Assembly (NCBI GenBank): GCA_964419335.1
Contig: CAYQOX010000024.1
Location: 1,162-65,161 of the forward strand
DNA from: an uncultured bacterium
GTDB taxonomy: Bacteria; Hinthialibacterota; Hinthialibacteria; Hinthialibacterales; Hinthialibacteraceae
Length of the DNA: 64,000 bases
Direction of reading: 5' to 3'
Both the position numbers and the translations under genes were made by a program. The notes beneath the pieces were generated by a model. The model searched no databases, was not told where the DNA came from, and saw only the letters and a program-made list of their open reading frames with translations. Positions 1,723-57,777 of this stretch are shown in pieces. The first letter of the stretch is position 1. Each line of letters opens with the position of its first letter.

Positions 1723-1949
1723 GGTTCATCCTGTATTTGAGTCCTTTTTGATACATTGAAAAGAAAACAGAACATGATTCTAAAGTGAGAACCATGGTTA
1801 TTTTCAATTTACATGAATCGTACCAAAACGCCGAAGGGGCCTGTGTGGAGCGGCTTTCGGAGCAAGCGGCCCTTAAGGCCGCGCGGAGACAAGCGAAACA
1901 CATCCCCAAGGCGTTTTCCCAAAAAAAGGACTCACTTTCGTGATGAGCC
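1723..1949 (+). mobile_element. MITE copy 1 (full length, ~227 bp) flanked by 8-bp TSD TTAATATA (1715-1722 / 1950-1957)
   Basis: Starts ggttcatcctgtatttgagtcc, ends ggactcactttcgtgatgagcc; internal conserved GC-rich core gcggcccttaaggccgcgcgg; identical 8-bp direct repeats on both flanks. Confidence 0.85.
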
Positions 1950-2960
1950 TTAATATATTGCCCATTCACTCACATCCGAGGGAAATTCTCCCCCCGGTAC
2001 GACCGCCATATTGAAGAAAGAACGAAAACTCGCATCCGCCTCCAAACCGGCTTGTTCAAAACCCGATGTGATATCGATAATGCGAGGCCCTGCGTTTAAA
2101 TCCGTAGCATCAAATACCCCAAACTTATTGAGGAGCTCCGGCACATCATGATTCCCCACTACGAAATTCGTGGTTCCCGGGATCTGGGCGATTCCCCATA
2201 TTCCTGTAAATCCGTCTTCCACCGCGTTGTACTCTTCTTCCAATTCACCATCCAGGCTAATTCGTACTAACGTGGATTGATCCCCCAAAGAGGCTACCAC
2301 CGAACCAATTTCATCATTATAAGTCAAAGAACGTACCACCCGGTCATCATTATAAAAGACCCCCGTAGGCTCTCCTCCTTCTTCTTTGTCATACACATGA
2401 ATCCCGGGATTATTTGCATCTCCCATCAACAACCGGCCATCCGGCAGCAACAATGCTTCCCCATGACCGCCTTTAACATAATCGCTCCACTCTGTGATGT
2501 CACCATCTGCAATTTTATAACGCCAGGCAACATCTTGATCATCCACATTACTATTCACGACCACTTCCCCCGGTCCAATCGCGGCCAAATGGGTAATCTT
2601 TATAATATCCGCCATGAATAACTGCTGATTGCCTTCACTATCAATCCGCAACATTTCTCCAATCCCATCGGGATATTCATTCTCTGGATCCGGCTCAAAT
2701 ACTGCCGTAATTCCTACCCAGACTACCCCTTCGGGATCCACATCTAACCCTAAAGCACGCCGACGATCGGTGTCTTCTAAGTCCCAACGAATCACGTTGA
2801 TCACTTCCGCCTCGTTTCCGTCGATGTTCAACTCAACAATTTGACCATCAGGCGAATAAAAAGGATCAGCAAAGATCACATTCCCCGGTTCAAACAGCTG
2901 CGCTTGAACCATCATCGGCGCCAAAAGAAAAGCGAATACCACAAATAATCTCATTCTCAT
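1950..2960 (-). CDS. secreted hypothetical protein (signal peptide MRMRLFVVFAFLLAPMMVQAQ; beta-propeller-like repeats)
   Basis: ORF 1950..3119 trimmed to Met at 2960, which has GGAGG 8 nt upstream; the N-terminal extension MLCFLFNVSKRTQ is translation of MITE copy 2. Confidence 0.6.
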   Translation of the reverse strand: MRMRLFVVFAFLLAPMMVQAQLFEPGNVIFADPFYSPDGQIVELNIDGNEAEVINVIRWDLEDTDRRRALGLDVDPEGVVWVGITAVFEPDPENEYPDGIGEMLRIDSEGNQQLFMADIIKITHLAAIGPGEVVVNSNVDDQDVAWRYKIADGDITEWSDYVKGGHGEALLLPDGRLLMGDANNPGIHVYDKEEGGEPTGVFYNDDRVVRSLTYNDEIGSVVASLGDQSTLVRISLDGELEEEYNAVEDGFTGIWGIAQIPGTTNFVVGNHDVPELLNKFGVFDATDLNAGPRIIDITSGFEQAGLEADASFRSFFNMAVVPGGEFPSDVSEWAIY

Positions 2961-3061
2961 AATACAACCTCCATCTAAAAAAGATTTAATCGATATAATA
3001 AAAAATAATAATAATTCATTCTTTTGTATAGATTTATACAACCCATTTTCCAAAAAAAATG

Positions 3062-3292
3062 AAAAAAGTTCATCCAGTATTTGAGTCCTTTTTGATACAT
3101 TGAAAAGAAAACAGAGCATGCTTCTAAAGTGAGAACCATGGTTATTTTCAATTTACATGAATCGAACCAAAACGCCGAAGGGACTTGTGTAGAACGCTTT
3201 TTGTACCAAGCAACCCTTAAGACCGCGCGGAGACAAGCGGAACTCATCCCCGAGTCGTTTATCTCAAAAAAATACACCCTTGTCGAATAATC
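3062..3292 (+). mobile_element. MITE copy 2 (full length, divergent termini) with 10-bp TSD AAAAAAAATG (3052-3061 / 3293-3302)
   Basis: Same conserved core as other copies; direct repeat AAAAAAAATG on both flanks. Confidence 0.75.
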
Positions 3293-7182: not shown

Positions 7183-7331
7183 AATGCTTTTATATTTTGA
7201 CAAGCATAAGGCATCTATGGTAAAAAAGAAGAGAAAATCTACCCTTGAGAGAATTCAACGCCGTAGGCAACCTGTCCTGATCTCTTTTTTAAGGTTGGAT
7301 TTTCTTTCGTGGATTAAATTTGGTTCATCCT

Positions 7332-7519
7332 GTATTTGAGTACTTTTTAATGCCTTGAAAAGAAAACATGACATGATTCGATCGCGAGGCCTCTGTTTTT
7401 CAATCCTAGTGAATCGAACCAAAACACCGAAGGGGCTTGTGTGGAGCGGCTTTTGGAGCAAGCGGAACCCATCCCCAAGGCGTTTTCTCCCAAAAAAGTA
7501 CTCACTTTCGTGATGATCC
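7332..7519 (+). mobile_element. MITE copy 3 (internal ~40-bp deletion of the GC-rich core)
   Basis: Shares both termini and the 5' half with other copies; lacks the gcccttaaggccgcgcggagacaagc segment; flanks TTAAATTT / TTATATTT (1 mismatch). Confidence 0.75.
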
Positions 7520-10848: not shown

Positions 10849-10859
10849 CCATCAATTTT

Positions 10860-11084
10860 GCTCATGTAATTTGTCTCTTTTTTGACACATCGAAAAGAAA
10901 GCATGACATAATTCTATAGCAAGACCTATGACTTTTTTAGAACTCAATGAATAGAACCAAAACGCCGAAGGGGCTTGTGTGAAGCGGCTTTCGTAGCAAG
11001 CGGCCCTTAAGGCCGCGCGGAGACAAGCGGAACTCATCCCCGAGGCGTTATCTCCAAAAAAAGTATTCACTTTCGTAGTAAGCC
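10860..11084 (+). mobile_element. MITE copy 4 (full length, 5' terminus divergent)
   Basis: Conserved core gcggcccttaaggccgcgcggagacaagcgg; flanks TCAATTTT / ACTAATTTT; starts immediately after the stop codon of 10195..10848. Confidence 0.75.
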
Positions 11085-13861: not shown

Positions 13862-14548
13862 TCATTCTCCCTGAATGAATTTATACCCCATCCGATGCAC
13901 CGTGATAATATGCTTCGGATTCTCGGGATCGTCTTCTAACTTTTGCCGCAACTTCACGATATGATTATCCACCGTCCGCGTCGCAGGAAAATGGGAATAG
14001 CCCCACACTTGCTGTAAGAACTGTTCACGCGTTACGATCTCATTCTCATGCTCAATAAAAAGACGAAGCATCTCAAATTCACGGGGAGAAAACTCGATCG
14101 GCTTTCCCCCCTTCGTTGCAGTATAGGAATCAAAATCAATCACCACATCATCAAACTTATACTCATGAAGGCTATCCCGCTCTTGTTGAGTGCGCCGCAA
14201 AATCGCGTTGATCCGCGCCATCAGCTCCCGCAGATTAAACGGCTTCGTGATATAATCATCCGCCCCCGTCTCTAAACCGCCCACCTTATCGGCTTCCCCT
14301 CCACGAGCCGTCAGCATAATAATTGGCGTGGTGCAATTGGACGTTCGTAAATGCTGGCATACTTCAATCCCATCCTTCCCCGGCAGCATCAAATCAAGTA
14401 TGATTAAATCGAATCGTTCTTTCAGTGCCAAACGCAATCCCTCATTCCCATTGCCCGTGGCGACGGTTTCATAGCCTTCATACTCAAGATTGTCTTGTAA
14501 TCCCCGCCGCATATCCGGTTCGTCTTCAATGATGAGAATGCGTGTCAT
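13862..14548 (-). CDS. OmpR-family response regulator (REC + winged-helix)
   Basis: MTRILIIEDEPDMRRGL...LILDLMLPGKDG...; C-terminal trans_reg_C (VWGYSHFPATRTVDNHIVKLRQKL...GYKF). Confidence 0.85.
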   Translation of the reverse strand: MTRILIIEDEPDMRRGLQDNLEYEGYETVATGNGNEGLRLALKERFDLIILDLMLPGKDGIEVCQHLRTSNCTTPIIMLTARGGEADKVGGLETGADDYITKPFNLRELMARINAILRRTQQERDSLHEYKFDDVVIDFDSYTATKGGKPIEFSPREFEMLRLFIEHENEIVTREQFLQQVWGYSHFPATRTVDNHIVKLRQKLEDDPENPKHIITVHRMGYKFIQGE

Positions 14549-14554
14549 TTTTTT

Positions 14555-14650
14555 GGTTCATCCTGTATTTGAGTTCTTTTTGATACATTGAAAAGCAAAC
14601 ATGACATGATTCTAAGCGAGACCTTTGACTTTTTTCAGTGCATAAATAAA
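14555..14650 (+). mobile_element. MITE copy 5, 5' fragment only (~95 bp), abutting start codon of response regulator at 14548
   Basis: ggttcatcctgtatttgagttctttttgatacattgaaaagcaaacatgacatgattctaagcgagacc... then unrelated sequence; conserved core and 3' terminus absent. Confidence 0.7.
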
Positions 14651-17342: not shown

Positions 17343-17571
17343 GGTTCATCCTGTTTTTGAGTACTTTTTGATACATTGAAAAGGAAACATGACATGATGC
17401 CATAGCGAGACCTATGACTTTTTTTCAATCCTAATGAATCGAATCAAAACGCCGAAGGAGATTGTGTGAAGCGGCTTTCGGAGCAAGCGGCCCTTAAGGC
17501 CGCGCGAAGACAAGCGGAACACATCCCCCAGGCGTGTGCTCCCAAAAAAGGACTCACTTTCGTGATGATCT
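17343..17571 (+). mobile_element. MITE copy 6 (full length) in the 5' leader of the sigma-54 activator gene
   Basis: Both termini and conserved core present; lies between a TGnTATAAT element and ATG 17593. Confidence 0.8.
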
Positions 17572-28034: not shown

Positions 28035-28090
28035 TGAATTTTACCAACAAATTTTCATAAGGCTAAAAAGTCCTAAAGCAGGTGTTGTTA

Positions 28091-28112
28091 ACGTGAATAA
28101 CACCTTTTTTAT
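28091..28112 (+). terminator. hairpin aggtgtt-N12-aacacct followed by T6, directly abutting MITE copy 7 (overlaps its left TSD)
   Basis: Seen directly; no plus-strand gene immediately upstream. Confidence 0.3.
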
Positions 28113-28340
28113 GGTTCATCCTGGATTTGAGTACTTTTTGATCCATTGAAAAGAAAACAGAACATGATTCTAAAGTGAAAACCATGGTTATTTTCAATGT
28201 ACATGAATCGAACCACAACGCCGAAGGGGCTTGTGTGGAGCGGCTTTCGGAGCAAGCGGCCCTTAAGGCCGCGCGGAGACAAGCGAAACACATCCCCAAG
28301 GCGTTTTCCCCAAAAAAAGTACTCACTTTCGTGATGAGCC
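28113..28340 (+). mobile_element. MITE copy 7 (full length) flanked by 8-bp TSD TTTTTTAT (28105-28112 / 28341-28348)
   Basis: Near-identical to copy 1; perfect direct repeat on both flanks. Confidence 0.85.
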
Positions 28341-28466: not shown

Positions 28467-30089
28467 CTAATCTCGCTTCTCCAGCCAAGCGATCCAGTCC
28501 TTGACTCCCGTTCTCGCAACCTCCGGAGTAGGGTTCTCCAAGGTATAGGCTCCCTCAACCGTTATCTGCTTCCCTTCAACCCACCTCCCCCTGCGCGGAT
28601 TAAACCACCTTAGTTGATAATCCCCCGCAGGCAGTTCCACTTCCTGCTTAAATCCATCGATCCGCGGGTTATCACTGCGTACATCTTCCCCATCCGGATT
28701 CGGCAAATAAATAATATAATTTTGCTCATCATGAATACACTTCGCCCGCTTAGGCTCGCCTCCTACCCGCTCATCCGCGGGTCTCATCCCTGCCAATGTA
28801 AGGTTGCTCTCCTCAAAGAACGTGTGTATATGCTTAAAATCATGCGCTCCCTGAGATAACACCCCCTTGCGATTGGCGTCGTAGTACCCCTGCACGCCTC
28901 GCACCAGCCCACCGTCATAGGCTTCATAAGTCCTTAACCCACCATACGTTGCATGACCTCCCGAGAGTAAGTTCGCCCACATCAAGCGCCGGAAATAATA
29001 ACGCGCATTGGCCGGATCGCGATACATTTCATATCGGTCTTCATCCAGCACCACCGGATCATTCCCCTTTTCCCGATACTCCAAAACCAACTCCCCCGCC
29101 GCCTCATCAATATCCTCTAGCGTAATCATGTCAGACCAGGACGCATCCACAAAAGAATACCCCGCAAACCGGTTTTGCTGATTGGTAATAAGCGTCCCCC
29201 AGGGCTCGCGTTTCTTCATATCCATGCCAATTTGATCAATCACGTGCCGGCTAATTTCACGTCCGCTTAATTGACTTAAATCTTCTTCCTCCACTATTTC
29301 ACGATCATTGGAAATTTCCCAGTAGATATTCGGGAAAGACGACCAGCGGGCTTGCGCATAACCGGCAATAAACTGCGATAGCCGATCCCCTTGCCCATAA
29401 CGAATCAACTCTTGCGTATCTTCCGCATAAGGAATCAACTGCACTAGGATATGGGGATAATGCTCCAAACAATAAAGCAAACGTTTTTCGATTTCTTGCC
29501 AATAATTTAAAACCAACCTTTCCCGCTCCGGCGTATATAACGCTTCCACCGTACTTCGGGATTGCGCAAACCAGGTACGTATTTTCGTAAATCCGGCTTC
29601 CGCGGCTTGATCGATATATTCTTGCCACTTTGGCTCCGACTGCACCACAAACCGATATCCGGTATCCCCAATATGCAAAAACCACTCTCCGTTATCATAC
29701 GCAAATTGCCGGGAATCCTCGGGATGAATGCGTAACTTCCCAGGCAGTTCCGATGGAATCACCTCAAACGTACCCCGGATACCCTCCAAAGCCTCGAGAT
29801 TAGATCGAACTTCATAATTCCAAGTCCCTTGCGTATCACAATACGCCCGCGCTTTATACGTCCGGTACCCGTCATAAAAACCCTCAGCGGTAGTTTTCGT
29901 ACCATCAGGACGCGTAAATTCCACCTGAAAGTGGAGATCAAGATAAGGATCGTCGATGCCACGGTTTGTTTGGACCTTGATCTCATACACCCCGCGATGC
30001 AAGGCTTTATCGCCATGATAAATCATCTCTTCGGCTTTCACTGAAACGCTTACAAGGAATAAAAGCATAAACATAATCGTTTGTTTCAT
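28467..30089 (-). CDS. secreted glycoside hydrolase-like protein (DUF5060 Ig-like N-domain + DUF4038 cellulase-like TIM barrel; GH140-like architecture)
   Basis: Signal peptide; domain-level resemblance only (YDNGEWFLHIGDTGYRF..., TKIRTWF...). Confidence 0.45.
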   Translation of the reverse strand: MKQTIMFMLLFLVSVSVKAEEMIYHGDKALHRGVYEIKVQTNRGIDDPYLDLHFQVEFTRPDGTKTTAEGFYDGYRTYKARAYCDTQGTWNYEVRSNLEALEGIRGTFEVIPSELPGKLRIHPEDSRQFAYDNGEWFLHIGDTGYRFVVQSEPKWQEYIDQAAEAGFTKIRTWFAQSRSTVEALYTPERERLVLNYWQEIEKRLLYCLEHYPHILVQLIPYAEDTQELIRYGQGDRLSQFIAGYAQARWSSFPNIYWEISNDREIVEEEDLSQLSGREISRHVIDQIGMDMKKREPWGTLITNQQNRFAGYSFVDASWSDMITLEDIDEAAGELVLEYREKGNDPVVLDEDRYEMYRDPANARYYFRRLMWANLLSGGHATYGGLRTYEAYDGGLVRGVQGYYDANRKGVLSQGAHDFKHIHTFFEESNLTLAGMRPADERVGGEPKRAKCIHDEQNYIIYLPNPDGEDVRSDNPRIDGFKQEVELPAGDYQLRWFNPRRGRWVEGKQITVEGAYTLENPTPEVARTGVKDWIAWLEKRD

Positions 30090-30127
30090 TTTTCTTGTTC
30101 CTTCGAAGTATTAGATTCTCTTTGTGG

Positions 30128-30167
30128 GGTCATCCTGTATTTGAGTCCTTTTTGATACATTGAAAAC
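30128..30167 (+). mobile_element. MITE copy 8, ~40-bp 5' terminal stub upstream of the start codon (30089) of the minus-strand GH gene
   Basis: ggtcatcctgtatttgagtcctttttgatacattgaaaac then unrelated sequence. Confidence 0.6.
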
Positions 30168-30336
30168 AATACCTTCATATGACTTAGACAATATCCAAAC
30201 ATTAAGATATCTTATAATAATAGTGTATTTTTTCATGAAGGGGGACAGGTCACTTTTTAACCTCTTCTCCACCTAGCCAAACAAAATCAACTCGGGATAT
30301 ACTATCCGAGAAATTCATACGCGAAATTTTCATGGA

Positions 30337-50231: not shown

Positions 50232-51644
50232 CTATTTGAAATTTGTGATCGTGTCGGTAATTTGTTCCATGACCGAGCGTAATTTTTGTTCGGCTTCCAT
50301 TTCTTTCTCAATTTTGTTGTAAGCAAAGAGAACCGTGGTGTGATCTTTGTTCCCGAAAAACGCGCCAATTTCTGGGAAAGAATGCTGGGTTAATTTCCGG
50401 CTGAGGTACATGGCGATTTGCCTAGGACGCGCGATCGAACGCGAACGGTTCTTCCCGATGATATCTGATGGTTTGATGCTGAAATATTCTGCGACTTTTC
50501 GTTGGATTTTCTCAATCGTGACTTCCTTGGTGGGACGGTCGAAGATCTCCCCGAGCACCTTACCCACTGTTTCAACGTTGAGATTCTCATTCGAAAACTT
50601 CGCGTAGGCGGTAATCTTGGCGAGGGCGCCTTCCAACTCACGAATGGAAAAACGCACTTTACTGGCGAGAAATTCCAAAATGTCATCGGGGATGATCATA
50701 TCCTCGGTTTCACATTTTTTCCGTAAAATCGCCATACGCATCTCAAAATCGGGAGGGGTAATATCTACGATCAATCCCCACTCGAAGCGTGAGCGGAGGC
50801 GGTCTTCGATGGTGGGGATATCCTTAGGCGGACGATCGCTGGAAATCACGATTTGTTTGCGGCGGTTATGGAGCGCGTTAAACGTATGGAAGAATTCTTC
50901 CTGGGTAGATTCTTTCCCCGCTAGAAATTGAATATCGTCGATCAGCAAGACATCCACATTACGGAAGGTGGATTGAAACGAGAGGCGGGCGTTGCGCTTA
51001 ATCGCATCGATAAAGACGTTGACGAATTGTTCCGCCGAGAGATAGACCACCCGCTTGGCGGGGTGTAAATACTGCACTTTATTCCCGATCGCCTGCATTA
51101 AGTGGGTTTTTCCCAGTCCGACACCGCCGTAGACAAACAGAGGGTTGTAGGATTGGGCTGGAGCAGCGGCCACCGCTTGAGCGGCCGCATTCGCCATTTT
51201 GTTACATGTTCCAACCACGAAATTGTCAAAAGTATAACTGGCGTTTAATGGTTCAAACTCAAGCAATCCTTCTGTGCTTGTAATGGCTGGGCTGTAGGAA
51301 GGAGCATAAGAACTTGGGGCTTGTGCCTTCACCTCTTCCCCCATCGAGCCGCTGAGTCGAATTTCTACATCCACAATACAATCCAATAATTCAGAAAATA
51401 TATCCGTTAGCAGGGCATGGTAATTCTTTTCGATGTATTCCCTGCGGTACCCGCTGGGGATACCTAGTATGACGTTACCATCTATGTTTTCAAGGACTTG
51501 TGCATCTTCAAACCAATCTTCTAATTCATCTTCCGTGAGTTTATGACGCAGCGCTTCTTGCGCCTTTTCCCAAAGAGAGCGTGTGTTATCCGTGTTCATT
51601 ACATTGGGCATGACTACCATTTTTTCCATAATCCTCCTTCCCAT
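50232..51644 (-). CDS. dnaA: chromosomal replication initiator protein DnaA
   Basis: AAA+ box LFVYGGVGLGKTHLMQAIGN; domain IV IARPRQIAMYLSRKLTQHSFPEIGAFFG.KDHTTVLFAYNKI; true start probably 51628 or 51620 (GGAGGA RBS at 51633-51638). Confidence 0.9.
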   Translation of the reverse strand: MGRRIMEKMVVMPNVMNTDNTRSLWEKAQEALRHKLTEDELEDWFEDAQVLENIDGNVILGIPSGYRREYIEKNYHALLTDIFSELLDCIVDVEIRLSGSMGEEVKAQAPSSYAPSYSPAITSTEGLLEFEPLNASYTFDNFVVGTCNKMANAAAQAVAAAPAQSYNPLFVYGGVGLGKTHLMQAIGNKVQYLHPAKRVVYLSAEQFVNVFIDAIKRNARLSFQSTFRNVDVLLIDDIQFLAGKESTQEEFFHTFNALHNRRKQIVISSDRPPKDIPTIEDRLRSRFEWGLIVDITPPDFEMRMAILRKKCETEDMIIPDDILEFLASKVRFSIRELEGALAKITAYAKFSNENLNVETVGKVLGEIFDRPTKEVTIEKIQRKVAEYFSIKPSDIIGKNRSRSIARPRQIAMYLSRKLTQHSFPEIGAFFGNKDHTTVLFAYNKIEKEMEAEQKLRSVMEQITDTITNFK

Positions 51645-51649
51645 GCTTA

Positions 51650-52610
51650 CAAACTGTAAAACAGTTCACTAGATGGGAGCCAAAAGTTCAATTCATACAA
51701 TGACTTATGCTCAAAATAGAGCAAAAAAAACCATCCCTCCCTCACTCGGTGGTCCTAAGTGAGCCTTGATCCAATCGCATTGTGACCTCTCAGTTAATTC
51801 AGATTGCGGAAATTATAGAGTTTCTCGATCTTTCCTTTTTATTTCTCAAGGTTTTGTTGTTCGTAAATGGATGTCGTAAAGGAGGGCCTTTTTCTATCCC
51901 TTATTCACAAGTTATCCCCTTTATCCACAGGACTATCCACAGGTTATTAACAAAGCCTTGATTTTTATAATCTTATGAATGTGATTCGTTGTTGATATTT
52001 TTAGCATTCTCTTCGTATTCACGCAATGCCTTTTTCACTTTTTCCGATTAAAACAAGGAAATTAAAAAGGCTGTAAATGGTTTAATGAAAGTCTGTTAGC
52101 CCATCAAAAAAAAATTGAAATTTTTTCAGCCGCTTTTGTTTGTTTTTTGTCTTATTCTTTATAAAAAATTGAATTTATTGACTTTAATAGTTTGGAGAAA
52201 TAGAGAACCTTGAATTTACTTGAAAAAGTTAAGAAAAACCAATTAGATAGAATTAATAGGCCTCGGTTAGATTTCTTGCCAAGACTTCTTCTATCTTCTT
52301 AAAAAACAGTCCATTACAAAAGCATTTTGCAAGAAGATTTTACGAATATCCCCAGAAAGGGGCCTCTTTTTTTGTACCTAAGTTCAATAATTCTTGGTCT
52401 ATAACGAGGAAATGCTTGTATTGACCGATGCGATGATGAAACCTCTTTTCGTTCCTGATCGGCTTTATTTATCCACAGATTTGAGATTTTCTCGTTCAAA
52501 AACGCTGGATTTCGGTCAATCCATCGAACCGGGAGGTGCTTTTTCTCCAAATTCCCTTAAACGTTAGTTGGTTAGGAGCCAAAATACAGAGTAAGACATT
52601 TTAGCATTGG
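51650..52610. other. candidate chromosomal replication origin (oriC): DnaA boxes plus AT-rich unwinding region
   Basis: TTATTCACA 51901-51909, TTATCCACA 51921-51929, CTATCCACA 51933-51941, TTATCCACA 52469-52477; long A/T tract 52100-52200; immediately upstream of dnaA. Confidence 0.65.
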
Positions 52611-52619
52611 AGGTAGAAA

Positions 52620-57550: not shown

Positions 57551-57777
57551 GGATCCTCACGAAAGTGAGCCCTTTTTTTGGAGAACGCCTTGGGGTTGTG
57601 TTCCGCTTGTCTCCGCGCGGCCTTAAGGGCCGCTTGCTACGAAAGCCGCTCCACACAAGCCCCTTCGACGTTTTGGTTCTATTGATTCGGATCGAAAAAA
57701 GGCATGACTTTCATTTATAGAATCATGTCATGTTTCCTTTTCGAGGTCTCAACAAATACTCAACGACAGGAAGAACC
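57551..57777 (-). mobile_element. MITE copy 9 (full length, inverted orientation) flanked by 9-bp TSD TTTTTTTAT (57542-57550 / 57778-57786)
   Basis: Reverse complement of the family consensus including gcggcccttaaggccgcgcgg core; perfect 9-bp direct repeat on both flanks; between convergent genes. Confidence 0.85.

Follow-up and report, generated by a model that had tools for sequence, protein, structure and literature searches.

Analysis of the window, that is, the whole 64-kb stretch of DNA considered here, indicates that two short repeats situated upstream of minus-strand genes, one (p1) at an OmpR-type response regulator gene and the other (p2) at an apiosidase-like gene, are probably what is left of two insertions of a ~228-bp MITE that decayed independently of each other. 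The same element is present in the window in seven full-length copies, detected by repeat finding, BLAST and profile search, which range in length from 198 to 229 bp and share 75-96% identity. A nhmmer profile built from these seven copies returned exactly two further, partial matches, p1 and p2, in agreement with the sequence-only reading, in which both loci had been described as truncated MITE copies; the profile search found no additional TIR matches in the window beyond these nine copies. Overall, the seven full and two partial copies amount to ~1.7 kb, or ~2.7% of the 64 kb, and all nine lie dispersed between ORFs, without transposase coding capacity (Table 1).

Table 1. Positions of the MITE copies, the two stubs and the associated genes and signals in the window.
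Feature	Position	Strand	Remarks
c1, full-length MITE	1723..1949	+	TSD 8/8; stop codon of gene 1950-2960(-) overlapped by the right-hand TSD copy
c2, MITE	3067..3292	+	Right end degenerate
c3, MITE	7322..7519	+	Internal deletion of ~27 nt, tip of hairpin B gone; TSD 7/8
c4, MITE	10858..11084	+	Left terminus diverged
OmpR-type response regulator gene	13862..14548	-	Pfam Response_reg and Trans_reg_C, both end to end
Putative p1 target octamer, ATTTTTTT (coding strand: AAAAAAAT)	14547..14554	+	Predicted retained TSD copy
p1, stub	14555..14643	+	Left TIR and hairpin A, element positions 2-93; nhmmer E 1e-19
Sigma-70-like match in p1	14609..14638	-	CTGAAA, 18 nt, TAGAAT; 9/12; points at the regulator
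c5, MITE	17343..17571	+	Right end ~20 nt upstream of the ATG (17593) of a sigma-54 activator gene
c6, MITE	28113..28340	+	TSD 8/8
Apiosidase-like (formerly DUF4038) / DUF5060 gene	28467..30089	-	Pfam PF13204 and PF16586
Native leader between p2 and ATG, 37 nt	30090..30126	-	SD-like GAAGGAA
p2, stub	30127..30172	+	Left TIR and 5' arm of hairpin A, element positions 2 to ~41-47; nhmmer E 2.7e-7
c7, MITE	57551..57777	-	Sole minus-strand copy; sole copy right of dnaA

The element is bounded by terminal inverted repeats (TIRs) of ~28 bp, the left end matching the reverse complement of the right end at 21 of 28 positions (c1, c3 and c6), and its termini read GGTTC(A/T)TCC and GGCTCATCAC. The predicted fold is rod-like (z = -5.2), with the TIRs pairing with each other; within it lie the A/U-rich hairpin A (alignment columns 35-41 / 82-88) and, spanning alignment columns 108-196, the long and GC-rich hairpin B, which is more stable than any other part of the fold and has a short U-run behind it. 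Direct duplications of 8 bp (TSDs), mostly at A/T-rich targets of varying sequence, bracket the copies. The two duplicated octamers agree at all eight positions in c1 (TTAATATA) and c6 (TTTTTTAT), a match expected by chance with a probability of ~1e-4, at seven positions in c3 and at six in c5 and c7, the 7/8 pair reading TTAAATTT/TTATATTT. A 37-nt core, TCATCCTGTATTTGAGTYCTTTTTGATACATTGAAAA, occurs six times in the window with three or fewer mismatches, against zero occurrences expected, and both stub sites share the block GG(T/G)TCATCCTGTATTTGAGT(T/C)CTTTTTGATACATTGAAAA. Covariation was uninformative, since the seven recent copies vary too little, with double changes at four pairs. The deletion in c3 is a clean one, the apical GCGGCC-CTTAAG-GGCCGC stem-loop of hairpin B having been lost from an otherwise intact element.

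On the basis of its TIRs, 8-bp TSDs, rod-like fold and nine dispersed intergenic copies, the repeat is a MITE, namely a non-autonomous TIR element of the cut/copy-and-paste kind. An identity as a PATE or REP of the IS200/IS605 type does not fit the clear TIRs and the 8-bp TSDs at variable targets; elements of that type, which use single-strand transposition and are replication-polarised, possess neither TIRs nor a TSD, carry subterminal hairpins and insert 3' of a fixed tetra- or pentanucleotide, and only the orientation bias of the MITE recalls them. The ISL3 family is characterized by an A/T-rich TSD of 8 bp, GGCTCTT-like termini and a parent with DDE_Tnp_ISL3, and it is this family that the 8-bp TSD and the GG(C/T)TC... 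termini of the MITE may resemble. The MITE matched no Rfam family at the gathering threshold over the whole window; at E <= 1 a full copy gave no match, and p1 matched only sub-threshold eukaryotic snoRNA and miRNA families, attributable to chance.

Stub p1 is 91.6% identical to c5 over 83 nt and bears the bases diagnostic of subfamily B (c3, c4, c5 and c7) through position ~88. Its terminal GG (14555-14556) is separated by six T residues from the CAT (14546-14548) of the regulator gene, placing the element 6 nt from the ATG, and by position all sequence from -7 upstream of this gene is element-derived. With the length of 8 bp taken from the full copies, the target octamer of p1 would overlap the A and the T of the regulator ATG, as read from the sequence, its partner TSD copy having been deleted. 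The regulator gene is intact and its start codon is native, since both Pfam domains are complete, homologues with up to 79% identity align over 99-100% of its length, and relatives share the N-terminus MTRILIIEDE. Related proteins carry labels such as Candidatus Hinthialibacter antarcticus or derive from Omnitrophota-labelled MAGs, which assigns the window to an uncultivated lineage.

Stub p2 is shorter and comprises an exact 37-nt match (30130-30166), identity being exact up to position 30166. The lengths of 95 and 40 bp previously given for the two stubs are approximately right (~89 nt for p1 and 41-46 nt for p2). The description of both as fused directly to start codons fits p1, whereas the terminal GGG of p2 (30127) sits 37 nt from the CAT (30087-30089) of the apiosidase-like gene, with a native SD lying between them. 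Similarly, the coding-strand junction quoted for both genes, caggatgaaccaaaaaaATG, with AGGA starting at -16, is found upstream of the regulator and belongs to p1 only. In the leader on the gene side of p2, the AAGG/AGGA matches within GAAGGAA start at -14/-13, and this motif is a ribosome-binding site of a type usual in this genome. The N-terminus of the apiosidase-like protein, read from the sequence, carries the signal peptide MKQTIMFMLLFLVSVSVKA.

The two truncations are independent events rather than copies of one duplicated junction, because p1 and p2 have unrelated flanks, break off at different points of the element (~position 90 in p1 and ~41-47 in p2) and carry different bases at one variable site; the independence assumed in the sequence-only reading, as opposed to a single ancestral duplication, is therefore upheld. 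Its suggestion of deletion hot-spots at the TIR is not, as both breakpoints are internal to the element, beyond the ~28-nt TIR. Each of them lies just 3' of one arm of hairpin A, and in each stub it is the left end that survives and faces the gene start; together these features might point to a non-random process, although they form an anecdotal pair (n=2). No right-end MITE fragments were detected by the profile search anywhere in the window, including the vicinity of p1 and p2.

A plausible course of events at the regulator locus would begin with insertion of the MITE into the A-run directly before the ATG, at the target AAAAAAAT, the target duplication regenerating the start codon. Later deletions would have taken the gene-distal part of each element, including hairpin B and the right TIR, while deletions extending toward the gene would have eliminated the start region and so have been purged. 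The gene-proximal end would thus have been kept in both stubs through survivorship. Translation of the regulator most likely still uses the retained A-rich leader and not the AGGA contributed by the element.

The last point bears directly on the earlier proposal of recurrent exaptation of the element end as a 5' UTR or ribosome-binding region. Confined to p1, this would mean that the left module (TIR and hairpin A) was recruited as a promoter and/or 5' UTR/RBS and that selection pared away what lay beyond it, a scenario that we consider unlikely. It can draw on the element-derived sequence upstream of -7, on the AGGA at -16, on the sigma-70-like site inside p1 that is aimed at the gene and owes its 18-nt spacer to two 1-nt deletions, and on documented cases of MITE- or IS-borne promoters, namely those of Correia elements, MITEAba12 and QMITE1 (PMC10969869) and an ISL3 hybrid promoter (PMC13216065). 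However, 0.8 sigma-70-like matches are expected by chance in the p1 region, so that the site found there occurs at chance frequency, and the scan of two full copies (c5 and c6) gave no equivalent match. In full copies the counterpart hexamers lie 19-20 nt apart (hand count); the spacer of p1 is what selection for expression would predict, yet it would not constitute evidence for domestication. A functional SD has a core complementary to the anti-SD at ~5-10 nt from the start codon. In about half of the window genes an SD-like 4-mer has its start in the interval from -18 to -6, most often at ~-12 and usually with a GGAG/GAGG core, whereas the AGGA of p1 is a bare 4-mer that leaves 12 nt to the ATG and so falls at the far limit of this interval. 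The regulator homologues in three other genomes moreover do without an SD, their leaders being A-rich, and the leader of the nearest one (contig L047, 79% identity) ends caaaaaaATGACACG / ...gaaagacaaaaaaATGACACG, A-rich like that of the window. Because of this shared ending, the simplest reading is that the A-run before the regulator is native, was the insertion target and would still support initiation, the AGGA being incidental. Stub p2 does not fit recruitment, given its native SD, the 37-nt gap and the lack of any promoter-like site on the strand of the gene in the sigma-70 scan. Recurrent exaptation is not supported, as only p1 abuts a start. The regulator may also be co-transcribed with a co-directional pectate-lyase gene that ends 166 nt upstream of it, by read-through from that gene. 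Folding of the chimeric p1 leader was no more stable than that of shuffled sequence (z = +0.9). A wider reading of two separate parts, in which the left module (~90 nt) of the MITE would act as a portable expression cassette and, independently of this, insertion or retention would be coupled to the direction of replication, is decidedly unlikely; in its first part, p1 would be a domesticated promoter and leader driving the regulator, tuned by the two 1-nt deletions. Overall, exaptation is unsupported for p2, and for p1 the argument is a positional one.

Two further explanations concern the process of truncation. Selection against the long, GC-rich hairpin B, which in a leader or within an operon would impede transcription or translation, might have favoured the deletion derivatives p1, p2 and c3; hairpin B is missing altogether from p1 and p2, c3 lacks ~27 nt at its apex, this hairpin is the most stable part of the fold with a short U-run after it, and both p1 and c3 lie between co-directional genes. 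The full-length copies c4 and c6, however, are likewise situated between co-directional genes, a simple terminator scan detected no terminator in full copies (c5 and c6), and three cases are insufficient as a test, which makes this explanation very unlikely in our view. Alternatively, the stubs might be primary products of aberrant transposition, one-ended or abortive and leaving solo TIRs, or might belong to a short modular repeat in its own right that the 228-bp MITE happens to include. This would accord with the retention, in both stubs, of one and the same end with its terminus intact and with the absence of right-end fragments from the window, but retention of the same end in two cases is expected half of the time by chance, the lengths (~89 versus 41-46 nt) differ and hence do not define a discrete unit, and up to ~position 88 the bases of p1 are those that mark a subfamily of the full-length element; such an origin is accordingly highly improbable. 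Independent decay of full-length insertions remains the preferred reading.

On this reading the two stubs are unremarkable products of MITE decay, of a kind already known. In the QMITE2 family of Coxiella only 10 of 78 copies are full length, and 57 partial copies are known for Chunjie of Geobacter; in both families many copies are partial, some without TIR or DR, as are p1 and p2 (PMC10969869). The hosts and sequences are different from those considered here, where two of the nine copies, counted within the window only, are partial.

The proximity of MITE ends to start codons is not beyond chance. The window is 84% coding, and among 7,624 non-MITE intergenic junctions, 7.3% fall within 15 nt and 20% within 50 nt of a start, while four of the nine insertions have an end at 50 nt or less from a start (binomial p ~0.09); the respective distances are 6 nt for p1, ~20 nt for c5, 37 nt for p2 and ~47-50 nt for c3. 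Element ends adjoin stop codons as often as starts: the TSD of c1 overlaps a stop, c4 begins ~9 nt past one, and c7 lies ~30 and ~25 nt from two. Ends are routinely found beside gene boundaries because the 228-bp copies sit in short intergenic spacers, which accounts for the closeness to starts that had been read as recurrent exaptation. A preference for A/T-rich targets concentrating insertions near starts was also considered and rejected, as such octamers are not enriched within 15 or within 50 nt of starts when compared with intergenic positions overall.

The right TSD of c1 (1950-1957) overlaps the stop TTA (= TAA, minus strand) of gene 1950-2960; the insertion fell on the last codon of this gene and the duplication preserved the stop, as a counterpart to p1 and its start codon. 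A terminator-like hairpin, AGGTGTTGTTAACGTGAATAACACCT (28080-28112), received copy c6 in its T-tract (TTTTTTAT). Insertions can hit the outermost bases of genes and leave the genes intact, because target duplication regenerates the start or the stop codon.

With regard to better-characterized mobile elements, further close parallels are found in Neisseria and Enterococcus. Correia elements are ~100-155 bp long and duplicate TA. Unlike them, the present MITE is ~228 bp long, has 8-bp A/T-rich TSDs and shows no sequence similarity, and its promoter role is only a candidate one. The likeness lies in the arrangement, the Correia elements (CREE) of Neisseria being short, TIR-bounded, non-autonomous and plentiful between genes, and often placed directly upstream of genes, to which they can donate promoters and into whose leaders they can be co-transcribed (PMC10969869). 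In Enterococcus faecium, an outward -35 of ISL3 upstream of folT forms a hybrid promoter, with an element terminus just upstream of the gene, as in p1 (PMC13216065). At the MITE terminus, in contrast, no outward -35 was found by the promoter scan, whose single match lies within p1 and is expected by chance. If the stubs had indeed been recruited for expression, they would add a further example of mobile-element ends rewiring bacterial gene regulation, a role for which Correia elements and IS ends provide well-documented precedents.

The main yield of the analysis is an uncharacterised and very dense MITE family in an uncultivated lineage without a close relative in public collections. A scan of ~186,000 species-representative genomes with the 17-mer TCATCCTGTATTTGAGT did not detect the MITE: it gave 46 single matches in unrelated phyla, none extending beyond 23 nt, which were rejected as chance occurrences. 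No matches were obtained in JGI metagenome contigs with either a degenerate 5'-end pattern or a central-hairpin pattern, nor in plasmids using blastn with a full copy. No parent IS with matching TIRs was found in the window, and the MITE is absent from the genome, metagenome and plasmid sets searched. A comparison of orthologous loci in relatives lacking the stub, proposed in the sequence-only reading, proved feasible in part: the nearest homologous loci (regulator homologues with 79% identity or less) are in non-syntenic contexts free of MITE copies, and only their leaders, A-rich and SD-less, are comparable. The high density in the window, together with undetectability in genome and metagenome collections, suggests a recent burst restricted to this lineage. 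The leader region of the nearest homologue (L047, 5225-5275) shows a 13-nt identity to the p1 junction, tgaaccaaaaaaa, consisting of the terminus GGTTCA and the A-run; its distance from the ATG is greater by 34 nt, and a second caaaaaaATG comes after it. This match may be coincidental, may be a relic of great age or may be a native motif similar to the MITE end, and no other MITE similarity was found on the L047 contig.

The distribution of the copies also shows a shared polarity. A full dnaA gene (50232-51644, minus strand), with the DnaA_N, Bac_DnaA and Bac_DnaA_C domains, is followed by a spacer of ~975 bp (51645-52619) of low GC (0.40-0.43), and the GC skew shifts from ~-0.2 (1-36 kb) through ~0 (36-52 kb) to +0.2 (53-64 kb); region 50232-52619 thus likely spans the chromosomal replication origin. 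All eight copies to the left of dnaA, stubs included, are on the plus strand, and the one to the right is on the minus strand. Relative to fork movement, all nine therefore have one polarity, for which the random expectation is 2/512, a post hoc figure involving one right-side copy. The orientation is independent of the direction of neighbouring genes, and a shared replication polarity is unusual for an element of the TIR/TSD type.

Finally, the repeats affect gene prediction. A mechanically called ORF (1950-3119, minus strand) starts within c2, whereas its real start is probably the ATG at 2960 (MRMRLFVVFAFLLAPMMVQA, with a signal peptide), c2 thus adding a spurious N-terminal extension of 53 codons; the protein of gene 1950-2960(-) itself had no Pfam match. 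MITE repeats of this kind give rise to false extensions at the N-termini of ORFs, and annotation should mask them.
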